Source: Pyrodictiaceae archaeon (GTDB lineage Archaea > Thermoproteota > Thermoprotei_A > Sulfolobales > Pyrodictiaceae). Taken from it: a stretch of 64,000 nt of DNA. A program made the position numbers and the translations under genes. The notes under the pieces were generated by a model that made no database searches, was not told the DNA's origin, and saw nothing but the letters and a program-made list of their open reading frames with translations. Numbering within the stretch: the stretch's first letter is position 1; every line of letters starts with the position of its first letter. This document shows, one piece after another, positions 13,517 through 18,059 of this stretch. Location of the stretch: assembly GCA_027036135.1 (NCBI GenBank), contig JALVSY010000007.1, positions 260,880-324,879 of the forward strand, written 5' to 3'.

Positions 13517-14041
13517 ATGCGCCATAGTAGCTCGCTTAGTAGCTACTTTATAAAAATTGGATTACTATTATTACTTGGCGCACTATTCTCGTCATTTGCT
13601 GCACTCTATACAATTACTAGCACCAAGCATTCAGTTACGAAAATAGCTACAAAAAAACCTTATTATTCGATAATAGTACTTAACTTGCTCAATACCACTA
13701 AAAAGAAGCAATTCGACAATGTAGCTAATATAGATGTAACAGTAGTAAATAAAGGATCCTCGAGACTACTGATCCTTACAGCACCATACACTAATCTTTC
13801 AATTACATTACAACCTGGCAAAAACATTACACTCACAGGACTCTCGCCTCTGGATGATCTCGTTATACAAGCCTTAAACAGCTCTGCCATAAATGTGTCT
13901 CTAGAGGCAACAGCTCATCTCGAGTATAGACCTTATCTAGTACTAGGACTACTAGGGTTGGTTCTCTTCCTCGCTGGCTCTATATTGCTCTCAGTAGGCA
14001 TAATAATAAGGTTTAGTGGAGTCGAAGAAGCCTTCACCTAG
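13517..14041 (+). CDS. hypothetical membrane protein with two TM helices flanking a beta-rich extracellular domain
   Basis: Hydrophobic termini and several NxT/S sequons. Confidence 0.65.
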   Translation: MRHSSSLSSYFIKIGLLLLLGALFSSFAALYTITSTKHSVTKIATKKPYYSIIVLNLLNTTKKKQFDNVANIDVTVVNKGSSRLLILTAPYTNLSITLQPGKNITLTGLSPLDDLVIQALNSSAINVSLEATAHLEYRPYLVLGLLGLVLFLAGSILLSVGIIIRFSGVEEAFT

Positions 14042-14121
14042 GAGATGATACTATATATTCAAATATGATTTTGTTAAAAAGCGATCGGCTCCGGCCATGC
14101 TGTATAGCACCATGTAGATGG

Positions 14122-14547
14122 TTAGAAGCGTGGTCGTCTACGATACGGGTTTCTCCCCATTCCTCTGCGAGGAGGACGATACCCCTCAGGCGCCTTGGGG
14201 GTTTCCTCGGGGACCTCGTCGGGCTGGGGAACCTCTTGGTCCTCTACGTGCTCTATATTGCTCTTGCCGCCTACGTTGAGGACTACTTGGCCCCGATACG
14301 CGGTTGTCCATGCACCATGTATCTCTACTGCCTCTCCCTGCTTGAGGCTGCCAGCTGCATGGCCCCAGAGGGTTAGGCGGGTGCGGCCAGTCTCATCCCC
14401 GACTATTGCCTCGCTTATCGTGCGAGGACCTTTACGTGTATTTATTACGCGTGGCTCCTGGGCCTCAATTACCCGGACTTTTACGCTCACGTTGTCCATT
14501 CCGGGTTGGAGCTCGGAGATTTTTGTTTCTTTTACGTCTTTTTCCAT
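14122..14547 (-). CDS. ssb: crenarchaeal single-stranded DNA-binding protein
   Basis: Single OB fold (TISEAIVGDETGRTRLTLWG, GAWTTAYRGQVVLNVG) plus an acidic/Arg-rich tail, as in Sulfolobus SSB. Confidence 0.92.
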   Translation of the reverse strand: MEKDVKETKISELQPGMDNVSVKVRVIEAQEPRVINTRKGPRTISEAIVGDETGRTRLTLWGHAAGSLKQGEAVEIHGAWTTAYRGQVVLNVGGKSNIEHVEDQEVPQPDEVPEETPKAPEGYRPPRRGMGRNPYRRRPRF

Positions 14548-14675
14548 TCGGACATTACACCATTCTACGCGATTCGGCTAAACATGTAAAGCTGGGCCTC
14601 TGCTCCCCTTATATCTCTTTGGGTACACATAGCGCAACTACGCTATAGACCCCGTCAGTGATAATGCACTAAGAA

Positions 14676-14855
14676 GGGGCTGTGAAGAGGCTGGCCTGTA
14701 CTCGAAGGGGGGGTTCCCCGGATGTAGAAGCCTGGGGGTTAGGGCTGAGCCGTTTACCTGGGAGCGGTACCTTAACGACCACTCCCAGGCTCATCATGGC
14801 ACGGCTCGGGGCAGGCTACGGCGGTTCAATCGCCCTCGCGTACCCCGAGCCCACC
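14676..14855. ncRNA. structured GC-rich element upstream of the TnpB-like gene (candidate omega/guide RNA scaffold; contains a C/D-like module)
   Basis: Stems CCTGGGAG/CTCCCAGG, GGCTCGGGG/CCCCGAGCC, GGCG/CGCC and GAGCCGT/ACGGCTC. Plus-strand boxes GTGAAGA, TCGA, ATGTAGA and CTGA closed by GGC/GCC. Confidence 0.55.
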
Positions 14856-14922
14856 AGTTTGTTTTACCGCCAGTAAAACTTATAGAGTTTCACTTGGGTA
14901 TATCCCCATATGGATTCTCACT

Positions 14923-16017
14923 ATGAGCTACATCACTATTATCGCTGGTTTCAGCGCTTCCGGTGAGAATGCTAAGCTACTGCTCTCTACAGCTTGGCTA
15001 TTCAAGATTGCAACTCATAGAGTACTTGGCTATGCCAAGTCGATGCCCGTCTTACCAGCCTCTAAGATTGCTTGGAAGAACACGTTCAGAAGAGTAGCAT
15101 ACGATGTTATCCCCAATCGCAGATATGCTGACTCAGTAGTAGTCCTAGTCATGGCTATCTACGAATCGTGTAGACGGTTAGGCATAGACTTCAAAGAAGT
15201 AGAGCTAGGAAACTGGCCCATGTTCCAGCAGAGTGAGAAAGAATATCCACCAAGAAACATCACTGTAAAGAGTATTGATGAGGCGTGGATAACAGTACTC
15301 AGCTACACTGGTGAAAGCAAGAGGATAAAGCTAAGAGTAGACACGTCAAAGGCTTATAGGAGATTGCTGGAGGCAATACTGGAGGAGAAACAAGCATACA
15401 ACCCAAGAATATACATCAAATCATGGAATATTAGGAATGGAGTACTCTACGTTAAAGGAGAACTACAAATAGCAATACCACTAGAATTCTACTACAAACA
15501 CATGACACGGTTTAAGAAAAACCTTGGCAAGCTCTATGGCGGTGTAGACGTTAACACAGATAGACTCAACCTAGCAATAGTTGATGAAAAAGGAAAGTTA
15601 AGGGACACCAAGACCTTCTGGTTCGAGGAGGCATCCAGAAAAAGGATATTCCAGGCATAGAGCTAGAAGCATTATAAGTATGTAAAATACATGAGATGCT
15701 GAAGTATGCATATCATCATGGAGTAAAGGCATTGTTTCTAGAAAACTCTGAGACTACAGGAAGGCTTAGACTTCTATGGATAAGGAGAGGCAAGAGACTT
15801 CATAGTAACTATAACTGGAAAGTATCGACATTCAGAAGCTCAATAATAGAGATGATAGCGATAAAAAGCCCCGCTGTACTCGATGAAGGTAAGTTATGTA
15901 AACCCTAAGGGGACAACGCACTCAAAGGAACATGACGAATTAATGAAAATGTATAAGCTAGATAGGCATACAACATCAGCCTATCTCATAGCCCTAAAAG
16001 GACTTAAACTATCCTAA
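14923..16017 (+). pseudogene. tnpB: TnpB-like (IS200/IS605-related) RuvC nuclease, zinc-finger-less, three +1 frameshifts
   Basis: RuvC-I GVDVNTDRLNLAIVD and RuvC-II LFLEN. After a shift at the A-run near 15864 the frame reads VNPKGTTHSKEHDELMKMYKLDRHTTSAYLIALKGLKLS* (RuvC-III DRH). Other shifts lie near 15640 and 15682. No tnpA is present. Confidence 0.8.
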
Positions 16018-16041
16018 AAGGCTCTGCCATAGTTACTGCTT

Positions 16042-16452
16042 TTATCTTTCCTCAACTATTTTCTTAACGGTGATCATGTAGGGGGCTAGCTCGCCGAGTC
16101 TCCACTCCATACGCTCTCCTGTCGCGGCAGAGAAAGAGACAACCACTGTATCATCATCACCGAACTCTGCCAATACTTGACGGCAAGCACCACAAGGTGG
16201 CAGGGGCTCAGGCGTGGATGAGACAATTACTACCTTGCGTATTTTGCGGCGTCCTGCGGTAATCATTGCTGCTACTGCTGCGCGCTCTGCACATATGGTT
16301 AGCCCGAGGCTAGCGTTCTCAACGTTTACGCCCAGGTGGACTGAGCCGTCCTCGGCCTCTATTGCTGCTGCTACACGTATACCACTATAAGGAGCATAGG
16401 CGTTGCCGAGAATGCTTAGAGCCTTTTCTTTTAACTCCTCAACGCTGGGCAC
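16042..16452 (-). CDS. cdd: cytidine deaminase
   Basis: NAYAPYS, GVNVENAS, CAER and PCGACRQ zinc motifs. Confidence 0.95.
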   Translation of the reverse strand: MPSVEELKEKALSILGNAYAPYSGIRVAAAIEAEDGSVHLGVNVENASLGLTICAERAAVAAMITAGRRKIRKVVIVSSTPEPLPPCGACRQVLAEFGDDDTVVVSFSAATGERMEWRLGELAPYMITVKKIVEER

Positions 16453-16613
16453 GGGTCAGCACCAGGCCAGGAGTTTCAACGCTCCCCGGGTCTGTTTCTC
16501 GGACTCGCGTAGGGTATAGGGTTTTTGAGTACCTGGCCTTCCCGCCACTGGCCGGGACCAGAGGTCTGGAACGAGAAACAAGAATAGACCATGTACCGTG
16601 GTGGCGCACTGGC

Positions 16614-18059
16614 ATGGTTGATGACGCGGAACGCGTTATTATAGGCTTGGAGGTACATATCCAGATAAACTCTCTTGAGTCGAAGCTGTTCTGTAGCTGT
16701 AGCAGCGACTATCATGGAGCCGGGCCTAATACTCGTATTTGTCCTGTATGCTTAGGGCTTCCCGGCTCATTACCGGTTACCAACGAGAAGGCTGTCCATA
16801 AAGCGATCCAGCTCTGCCTGGCTATTGGTGGGCGCGTTGCCCCGGTGCTCCGCTTTGATAGGAAGCATTACTTTTACCCCGACTTGCCGAAGAACTACCA
16901 GATAACGCAGTACCTTGAGCCTATTTGCCGTGGAGGTAGCGTGGAGATAGAGACAAGGAAGGGAGCCAAGAGGATAAGGATTAGGAGGATAAATATCGAG
17001 GAGGATCCTGGGAGAATAGTTTATCCCGGTGGCTCGCCCCACAGCAGCCCATATGCGCTTGTTGATTATAATCGGAGCGGTGTAGCGCTCCTAGAGATAG
17101 TCACTGAGCCCGACATGGAGTCACCAGACGAGGCCGTGGCTTTCCTCGAAAAGCTCCGCAGTATCGTGGAGCACCTAGGGATATGTGATTGCGGACTAGA
17201 GGGGGCCATGCGGGCTGATGCCAACATAAGCATTGAGGGCGGTGAACGAGTAGAGGTAAAGAACATCACCGGGTTCACGGAGGTGAAGAAGGCACTAGCC
17301 TACGAGATTACTAGGCAACGGGACCTCCTTGCCAAGGGGCAGCGTCCTCGCCGAGAGACTCGGCACTGGGACGCCGTGCGCCGAGTCACTCTCCCCGCGC
17401 GCACCAAGGAGACCGAGGAGGATTATAGGTACATGCCGGAGCCTAATCTACCCCCAGCGCCTATCCCCAGAGAGCTTGTTGAGAAGCTTAGGGAGACATT
17501 ACCGGAGTTGCCGGATGCACGCATGAAGAGGCTCGTAGAGCAGTATGGCCTCCGTAGAGAGGTCGCTAAGGTGCTTGTGTCTCGTAAAGTGCTTGCCGAT
17601 TTCTTCGAGGACGCTGCAAGGATCTATAGCGGGGATGCGCGTAGACTAGCAAATTACCTTGTCAATGACTTGCTTAACTGGCTTAAGGATGAGGAGCTTC
17701 GGCCTCTCTATAGGCGTGTTCGCCCGGAGCACGTTGCGAAGGTGATGAGGCTACTGGATAGCGGGGTAATTAGTATTCGCCAGGCCAAGGAGCTTGCGGA
17801 GCACCTAGTAAAGAGGGGTGTTGACCCCGAGAAGCTCGTAGAGGAGCTCGGGTTTAGGAGAATAGCTGACCCCGAGAGGCTCAGAGAAGTGGTACGAAAG
17901 GTGCTGAAGGAGAACCCTAAGGCTGTGCGTGATGCGCTGAAAAACCCTAAGGCGATTAACTTCCTCGTGGGAATGGTTATGAGGGAGACGCGTGGGAGAG
18001 CTGACCCCGTCGTTGCGAGAAGACTTGTTGAGGAGGAGCTTGAGAAAATGAAGAGCTAG
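16614..18059 (+). CDS. gatB: Asp-tRNA(Asn)/Glu-tRNA(Gln) amidotransferase subunit B
   Basis: IGLEVH, KLFC, RKHYFYPDLPKNYQITQ, DYNRSG, DYRYMPEP. Start reassigned to ATG 16614 because the longer ORF overlaps cdd. Confidence 0.95.
   Translation: MVDDAERVIIGLEVHIQINSLESKLFCSCSSDYHGAGPNTRICPVCLGLPGSLPVTNEKAVHKAIQLCLAIGGRVAPVLRFDRKHYFYPDLPKNYQITQYLEPICRGGSVEIETRKGAKRIRIRRINIEEDPGRIVYPGGSPHSSPYALVDYNRSGVALLEIVTEPDMESPDEAVAFLEKLRSIVEHLGICDCGLEGAMRADANISIEGGERVEVKNITGFTEVKKALAYEITRQRDLLAKGQRPRRETRHWDAVRRVTLPARTKETEEDYRYMPEPNLPPAPIPRELVEKLRETLPELPDARMKRLVEQYGLRREVAKVLVSRKVLADFFEDAARIYSGDARRLANYLVNDLLNWLKDEELRPLYRRVRPEHVAKVMRLLDSGVISIRQAKELAEHLVKRGVDPEKLVEELGFRRIADPERLREVVRKVLKENPKAVRDALKNPKAINFLVGMVMRETRGRADPVVARRLVEEELEKMKS

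Follow-up and report, generated by a model that had tools for sequence, protein, structure and literature searches.

A 64,000-nt stretch of a Pyrodictiaceae archaeon assembly (GCA_027036135.1, contig JALVSY010000007.1, positions 260,880 to 324,879; hereafter the window, numbered from its first letter) carries an inserted mobile element of about 1.29 kb between an ssb-like gene and a cytidine deaminase gene (cdd). The element (14750..16039) holds one gene, for a TnpB-like nuclease without a zinc finger (14923..16017, plus strand), and, between the left border and that gene, a conserved structured block of about 107 nt (14750..14856) that appears to be an RNA read from the minus strand, a candidate guide-RNA scaffold. 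We think it probable that this is an element of OMEGA type (obligate mobile element-guided activity) in which the guide-RNA end and the nuclease gene stand back to back on a common promoter, with a kink-turn (k-turn) in the scaffold and a G-rich transposon-associated motif (TAM).

By the searchable literature this layout appears to be new. The omega-RNA of TnpB is placed downstream of tnpB in the searchable text of Altae-Tran et al. (2023, PMC10691335), and our literature search found no description of an upstream antisense RNA for a TnpB; supplements fell outside that search, and the supplement of PMC10691335 may list this finger-less branch. Loss of the zinc finger in TnpB branches and the Pfam entry for the protein (PF27229) were already known.

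Borders, flanks and copies of the element

The borders come from sites that lack the insertion. Two genomes of the same genus (G001 and G004) have the ssb-cdd interval uninterrupted: where G001 reads ..GGGCTGAG|CCCCTCGTCTC.., the window reads ..GGGCTGAG followed by the insert, CCGTTTACC ... GTTACTG, and then CTTTTATCTTT.. on the other side. A metagenome contig from run X9 joins 14751 to 16045 with CTTG between. These empty sites and the X9 junction therefore place the element at 14750 to about 16039, with an ambiguity of about 2 nt, the C residues at both junctions being assignable to either side. An independent pair, the empty site ..TTATGAG|CCCCCTCAGCC.. in genome G104 and the filled site ..TTATGAG[CCGTTC...TTTCTG]CCCCCTGAGCC.. 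of copy L125 in genome G074, agrees on the borders, and a C-run adjoins the insertion point; at a third site (copy L121 against G104) the region is rearranged and yielded no clean junction. The empty/filled comparisons showed no target duplication flanking the element, so that two independent pairs display the insertion beside a short conserved target, with no duplication, that is typical of IS200/IS605 elements. Insertion shortened cdd by five codons, from ..VEERRGAQP* in G001 to ..VEER* in the window.

These comparisons also redraw the structured region. The sequence-only reading, a note made from the letters of the window, had described about 180 nt upstream of the gene as structured and had expected conservation to drop at about 14676. 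The drop is at 14750, because the 74 nt at 14676..14749, the left 40% of that region, are present at the uninterrupted sites (identity of 92% in G001 and 80% in G004) and in the X9 contig; this is host sequence, including the last five codons of the uninterrupted cdd and a conserved stretch, and only the 107 nt from 14750 to 14856 remain as the block. Two further proposals fall with the old boundary: a guide equal to the reverse complement of 14657-14676 would lie 74 nt from the true boundary, and an alternative GAGCCGT/ACGGCTC pairing is the conserved CCGT/ACGG helix lengthened by three chance bases of the flank.

The right end carries a terminal motif, GTTACTGC (16032..16039), which in homologs reads ..TTTCTGC, ..AACAGC or ..TTACAGC. 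It is followed by CTTTTA (16039..16044), where the empty sites have CCCCTC (G001 and G004) or CCCTTG (X9) and other copies have a C-run. The C-run of the window has apparently been replaced by transitions, and the CTTTTA flank supplies the present stop codon of cdd.

The complete genome G074 contains 11 copies (L120-L130), two of them full-length with open frames of 371 aa and nine about 330 bp long. The short copies are all one form with an internal deletion, in which RNA, promoter and five codons are joined to the final ~100 nt of the gene and the right end. The left border falls exactly at CCGTT in all 11 copies, and in 10 of them the right end reads ..TTTCTGCCCC (CTGCCCC) before the sequences diverge. 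Across loci, C[AT]GCCC follows the stop codon in 28 of 58, compared with a mean of 1.7 and a maximum of 6 in shuffled sequences, and in other subgroups ..AACCC(T) follows after a few more bases. On the predicted RNA strand this arrangement is the TAM-and-guide geometry of TnpB, with a G-run directly 5' of the element and variable flank directly 3' of the scaffold. The host flank at the scaffold 3' end in the window (14730..14749, minus strand) would then be the candidate guide, given the boundary and the favored orientation.

The upstream structured element, its probable strand and its candidate promoter

In minus-strand reading the block runs from 5'-UGGUG... through stem A, a k-turn and hairpin 1 to ...AACGG-3', which ends at the element boundary. 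Stem A, helix 1 of the covariation test, pairs GGCTCGGGG (14803-14811) with CCCCGAGCC (14843-14851) and encloses an inner hairpin. The k-turn module spans 14750..14799, with a C-stem formed by CCGT (14750-14753) and ATGG (14796-14799; consensus ACGG) and GAU-GA on the bulged strand, and hairpin 1 pairs CCTGGGAG (14757-14764) with CTCCCAGG (14782-14789). The window has an A for the consensus G in the C-stem, and the strains in runs X5 and X7 have the consensus base (14797 T>C). Stem A and hairpin 1, which the sequence-only reading had picked out, are the two covarying helices, and the window element folds far better than its shuffles on both strands (z of -7.31 on the minus strand and -6.16 on the plus strand). 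Distant homologs have the same upstream plan in common: CCGTTCACC, a hairpin, GGTTCATCACGG, a long stem with an inner hairpin, and CACCA.

A covariance model built from 11 copies, on the strand opposite to the gene, matched 78 times across 89 sources (73 matches at E<=2e-7) and scored the window at 80.1 bits (E 4.4e-17). Of the homologous loci, 64 have a full N-terminus and 250 nt or more of sequence before it, and in 62 of these the element is antisense to the gene and no more than 200 nt upstream of its start. A covariance model over homologous loci was the check proposed with the sequence-only reading, whose central observation, a real and conserved structure upstream of the gene, thus stands in substance but not in its coordinates. 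Pairing over the 78-row alignment amounts to 93.4% of cells; 500 shuffles gave 72.8 +/- 0.8, none of them as high, and controls with the register slid reach at most 52.5%. Both sides change together in 13 of the 15 model pairs; stem A has such changes in all six of its pairs, with 94.7% of cells paired, and the C-stem was compensated in two independent ways, CG to GC (7 rows) and UA to CG (5 rows). This alignment was fitted to the covariance model and is thus biased towards structure, and it is the slid controls and the double changes that speak for a real structure despite this. Like OMEGA systems, the element contains a conserved structured block, a predicted RNA, that ends at its boundary, from where a guide would be read out of the flank.

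Two other assignments were tried and rejected. RNAalifold proposed a 5' helix, UGGU/RCCG, which we dropped for the covarying CCGU/ACGG stem because it had no double changes and its pairing equaled that of shuffles (89.1% against 89.0%). A tRNA with introns had been suspected from ...GGTTCAATC... and the CCCACCA end; ARAGORN found none in 14000-16500, and the T-arm is unpaired. Rfam gave 0 matches at E<=1 over the same interval.

The gene 3' end showed no comparable folding. The last 141-150 nt of the gene do not fold better than shuffles in the window (z -0.35 for the last 150 nt) or in two homologs (+0.93 and +0.91), and only about 5-50 nt separate the stop codon from the element end. At these three loci there is no sign of, and little room for, a canonical sense-strand scaffold overlapping the gene 3' end. 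The sequence-only reading had seen both features in the window, an unstructured 3' end and a stop codon only 24 nt from the convergent cdd stop, and both hold.

At two loci (L081:1189-1482 and L105:1114-1392) a single gene has two RNA elements upstream of it, separated by about 37 nt and arranged head to head, with opposite orientations. These pairs may be nested or back-to-back insertions.

We favor the antisense reading of the block because of its conserved U·G pairs, a k-turn that exists on one strand only, its folding energy and its fixed spacing to a TATA box. Of 73 copies, 70 fold more stably on the antisense strand, the mean difference being 10.6 kcal/mol. A strand-symmetric helix finder counted 240 G·U against 113 A·C combinations, with 58 sequences leaning to G·U, 10 to A·C and 5 equal. 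In the inner long stem (GUUCC/GGGGC), U·G occupies one stem-A position in 31 of 36 copies and each of two neighboring positions in 21 of 36, the 36 being those of the 73 copies that could be registered by pattern; reading the gene strand turns these conserved pairs into two or three consecutive C·A mismatches. A k-turn consists of a C-stem, a 3-nt bulge, tandem sheared G·A and A·G pairs, and an NC-stem. On the antisense strand only, the block has the standard form of this motif, so far as primary sequence can tell: C-stem CCGU/ACGG, bulge GAU, then G·A and A·G. Over 73 copies the G and the A of the bulged strand are each invariant (73/73), A1n is present in 68 and G2n in 51 (A in 19).

The near-palindromic TATA box CTTATAG (14879..14885), whose presence at 14879 the sequence-only reading had reported, starts 23 nt beyond the RNA 5' end and is a candidate bidirectional promoter. 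In 64 of 66 loci the first conserved base of the RNA has a TATA-like hexamer starting 21-25 nt away, in many cases the palindrome CTTATAAG. Towards the gene, 58 loci were measured: in 34 the TATA box is 25-29 nt from the start codon, and a second group, the window among them, has 39-43 nt. Such spacing fits archaeal TATA-to-start distances both ways. The spacing on both sides therefore suggests one bidirectional promoter, which would produce a leaderless or short-leader mRNA in one direction and the RNA in the other. Between the TATA box and the start codon lies a palindrome, GGGTATATCCCC (14896..14907), at a conserved position; GGGGATTCCCC or GGGTATATACCC stands there in most of 66 loci (L028-L107), and it could be an operator or a hairpin of the 5' leader.

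A nuclease family without a zinc finger

In the window the gene runs over three frames, a first part of 245 aa followed by 15696-15908 and 15883-16017, with indels near 15639, 15683 and 15863, and it is the only copy in the source genome. Open frames of 363-377 aa are present in 12 of 61 related genomes (G000 counted), and isolates of Vulcanisaeta and of Caldivirga are among the carriers of intact copies. All homologs listed read ..NP(K/R)GT(T/S).., then 17-20 residues with no Cys, then ..(GL)D(R/K)H.. and SAY, so that the C4 finger found in canonical TnpB between RuvC-II and RuvC-III is missing. Since no intact homolog has a Cys4 finger, its loss is a trait of the family. All 13 aligned homologs have D209, E273, D346 and H348; judged by motif position, the first three probably form the catalytic D-E-D triad. 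The sequence-only reading had reconstructed a RuvC D/E/D protein lacking the Cys4 finger, and the fold, the motifs and the three invariant residues bear it out; the loss of the finger in whole TnpB branches was already in print (PMC10691335, searchable text).

Profile searches hardly connect the protein to TnpB. The three window pieces matched no Pfam family. P0001, an intact homolog with 79% identity to the first of these pieces, matched neither of the Pfam TnpB models (OrfB_IS605 and OrfB_Zn_ribbon) and scored 13.7 bits on TIGR01766, below the cut-off of 32. Among PDB sequences the best profile match was to Cas12f chains at E 0.047. Structure was more informative: with an AlphaFold model (pLDDT 88.4, pTM 0.74), Foldseek found 47 PDB matches at E<=0.001, the top ones at E 6e-12 to 3.7e-5 and TMq 0.51-0.59. 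The best was Cas12k (7n3o, E 6e-12, TMq 0.56), then Cas12f (8j3r and 7wju); ISFba1 TnpB (8iaz) matched at E 3.7e-5 and TMq 0.53. By its predicted split RuvC fold with a WED/REC-like N-terminal part, the protein is a member of the TnpB superfamily, and a non-canonical one.

Public collections contain 782 relatives at E<=1e-5. The best 120 of the 782 all carry PF27229 ('SSO2105_N', Pfam 38.1); three of these 120 bear the name 'IS605 OrfB family transposase' and the others 'hypothetical protein'. A profile search over 1.84 billion representatives gave 711 matches at E<=0.001. Our literature search found no paper that mentions the accession PF27229 or 'SSO2105'.

Within the class, the protein profile matches 58 of 151 genomes (E<=1e-10) and the RNA model 52 of 151, with up to 16 copies per genome; the RNA copies number more than 200. 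One family, f13, has the protein in 13 of 36 genomes and the RNA model in 0 of 36. Upstream of the TATA box its loci (L133-L143) carry another conserved block, 173-184 nt long, with a sharp end at the element border, an antisense fold that is more stable in 9 of 10 copies, and abundant AUGA and UGAA motifs. Since this distant branch has an upstream block of different sequence, the layout seems to be older than the sequence. An extra open reading frame (ORF) of 54 aa lies between promoter and nuclease gene in f13 and overlaps the nuclease start; it matched no Pfam family.

The window copy itself is decayed: besides its three indels, the k-turn stem is mutated and the flank on the TAM side is altered. 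Runs X5, X6, X7 and X9, from three studies, have one base fewer at each of 15639, 15683 and 15863, and removal of these three bases restores an open frame of 363 aa with no internal stop. The frame breaks are single extra bases in or beside A-runs, and they look like a genuine decayed allele more than an assembly error: 0.99-1.00 of the sampled words of the stretch are present in three runs that could be the source of the window DNA. With the gene intact in sibling strains and the insert absent from others, the window copy is therefore best described as a decayed allele. That the whole locus is a dead pseudogene beside chance structure in a GC-rich spacer is refuted for the family: the three frame breaks and the lack of a second copy in the genome would fit, but sibling strains have the open frame at the same site, intact homologs number in the hundreds, the structure covaries over 78 sequences, and insertion polymorphism with 11 copies in one genome indicates recent mobility.

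The guide-RNA reading and its alternatives

On the reading that we prefer, this is a compact, IS1341-like element with a single gene, whose protein is a TnpB-superfamily RuvC nuclease after zinc-finger loss. Its partner RNA would be a scaffold of about 95-165 nt lying upstream of the gene on the opposite strand, not at the gene 3' end. The palindromic TATA box, common to both, would fire both ways, rightwards for a leaderless or short-leader mRNA and leftwards for an RNA that would start with UGGUG, pass through stem A, the k-turn and hairpin 1, and end its scaffold with ...AACGG at the element boundary. The RNA would continue into the host flank, which would serve as a 3' guide, and by analogy with TnpB the ribonucleoprotein would recognize and cut the unoccupied site, a GGGG TAM on the RNA strand followed by the flank. 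The nuclease gene would in effect be inverted relative to the canonical guide-RNA end. The sequence-only reading had offered a divergently transcribed scaffold as one of two options; its start, at about 14853-14856, and a flank-derived 3' guide are favored by the U·G pairs, the k-turn, the folding energy and the TATA spacing, and it is the boundary and the placement of the guide that had to change.

Several observations weigh against this reading. We infer transcription, its strand, the RNA ends and the guide alike. The 15 core pairs have no wobble bias (31 G·U against 40 A·C, or 31 against 25 without the first pair), and the advantage in energy and the excess of G·U are partly what any G-rich strand would have. 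The gene strand too folds better than shuffles (z of -6.16, -3.42 and -2.84). Our TATA pattern is loose, although its matches cluster at only two offsets. Two of the 64 loci depart from the layout, L089 with no match to the model and L081 with a second, inverted copy in between. The CTTTTA flank is not confined to the decayed window copy and shows no difference in X5, where the gene is intact. Ten carrier genomes, each at least 96% complete, were searched for the Y1 transposase (PF01797) with positive controls detected, and only one had a match above the cut-off; the first five genomes gave none, the second five gave this one, or two if E<=0.01 is allowed, and a very divergent transposase may have escaped. 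None was found in G074, with its nine derivatives and two intact copies. Y1 being rare in carriers, the IS200/IS605 logic behind the TAM and guide assignments may therefore not apply.

The most serious alternative, which we consider improbable, keeps the antisense RNA and gives it a regulatory or structural role, for example as a promoter-associated, L7Ae-binding RNA that controls nuclease expression or copy number. It would account for the promoter region that RNA and gene have in common, it would dispense with the putative target and guide role of the RNA, and it would suit the k-turn: archaeal k-turn RNAs bind L7Ae, and L7Ae has been reported, in the searchable text of PMC5539422 and for another species, as a translation regulator. 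A regulator would have no need of a scaffold that ends at the element boundary to the nucleotide, as it does in every copy examined and as a guide RNA must. Nor would it explain a partner with the fold of an RNA-guided nuclease and an intact catalytic triad, or a conserved, TAM-like motif on the opposite flank.

Somewhat less probable still is that the block acts as DNA, a folded single-stranded transposon end recognized by a transposase, like the subterminal hairpins of IS200/IS605. Its position exactly at the element end, its retention in the nine short G074 derivatives, the better-than-shuffled folding of both strands and the unbiased core pairs would all fit such an end. Known transposon end hairpins need far less structure than several helices over 95-165 nt and a k-turn whose G and A are kept in 73 of 73 copies. 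The conserved tandem U·G pairs, the fixed TATA spacing and the scarcity of Y1 over the cut-off also count against it. It is in any case compatible with a guide RNA, because a canonical guide scaffold overlaps the transposon end.

The second option of the sequence-only reading, a gene-strand RNA whose 5' guide would come from the left flank, is very unlikely. In IscB and IsrB systems the RNA is on the gene strand and has its guide at the 5' end. The block does lie upstream of the gene, as in IscB loci (PMC10691335, searchable text), and its gene strand does fold better than shuffles. Read that way, C·A mismatches replace the U·G pairs, the k-turn strands turn from GA-rich to UC-rich, and 70 of the 73 copies fold less stably. 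The RNA would need a start outside the element, which has no internal promoter for a 5' guide, and the protein fold is that of TnpB/Cas12f and not of IscB.

The guide-RNA reading places the element closest to TnpB and its omega-RNA in tnpB-only, IS1341-type members of IS200/IS605. Both have a compact RuvC nuclease of TnpB/Cas12f fold with D-E-D, a single gene, no target duplication, a scaffold that ends at one boundary (where a 3' guide would come from the flank), a short conserved motif on the other flank, and short derivatives with both ends. The element differs in that its predicted RNA lies upstream, antisense, on its own (shared) candidate promoter and without overlap with the gene 3' end; in the missing Cys4 finger, the k-turn in the RNA and the G/C-rich flank motif; and in its protein, which leaves the TnpB Pfam models unmatched and TIGR01766 below cut-off, with Y1 mostly not found in carriers. 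With IscB/IsrB it shares a structured RNA upstream of the nuclease gene, whereas the evidence here favors the opposite strand and a 3' guide, and the TnpB/Cas12f-like protein does not place it in that group. Cas12f and Cas12k are the best structural matches (E 6e-12 to 1e-8, TMq 0.51-0.59) and similarly small, but here there is no CRISPR array and no zinc finger, the locus is a mobile element, and identity is 12-13%. The archaeal RNAs with L7Ae-bound k-turns (C/D box sRNAs, RNase P RNA and signal recognition particle RNA) have the same standard k-turn signature and 4-bp C-stem; unlike them, the element has neither C/D guide regions nor an Rfam match, and L7Ae binding is only putative. Whole TnpB branches, RIIIr-4 among them, likewise lost the C4 finger according to the searchable text of Altae-Tran et al. 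(2023, PMC10691335); RIIIr-4 has a rearranged RuvC-III, whereas by our reading the Asp here keeps its normal position within D-x-H/N-x-A-x-A.

Should the antisense RNA prove to be the guide, a TnpB-type nuclease and its RNA can be linked independently of processing of the nuclease mRNA 3' end, and gene and guide end can be inverted and driven from one bidirectional promoter. Organisms growing near 80-100 °C would then provide a nuclease that is very small (363-377 aa), has no finger, uses a G-rich TAM and works with a scaffold containing a k-turn, which would be of interest for thermostable genome-editing tools and for the origin of the trans-activating CRISPR RNA and array layouts of Cas12. 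The scarcity of Y1 beside multi-copy, polymorphic elements makes the movement of tnpB-only elements, an old question, directly testable in this family. A bolder conjecture, for which we hold out little expectation, is a self-sufficient, TnpA-independent OMEGA life cycle in hyperthermophiles, prompted by the lack of Y1 matches in most carriers. Retention and spread, also of the short gene-less derivatives, would be the work of the nuclease and its divergently made guide RNA with the k-turn, perhaps joined by host L7Ae as third subunit.

The host sequence next to the insertion has features of its own. The stretch 14676-14755 is conserved in G001 and G004 more than the adjacent spacer and overlaps, on the other strand, the last codons and the 3' region of cdd. 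At the empty site its plus strand roughly resembles a C/D-box small RNA (GGGGC, TGTGAAGA, ..., ATGTAGA, ..., CTGA, GCCCC); Rfam gave no match for the stretch, and the insertion point of the element lies directly after CTGA-G. The neighboring genes are both on the minus strand: an OB-fold, SSB-like protein at 14122-14547 (PF21473, E 8.9e-8) and the cytidine deaminase at 16042-16452 (PF00383, E 7.8e-16), which is followed by a gatB-like ORF at 16362-18059.

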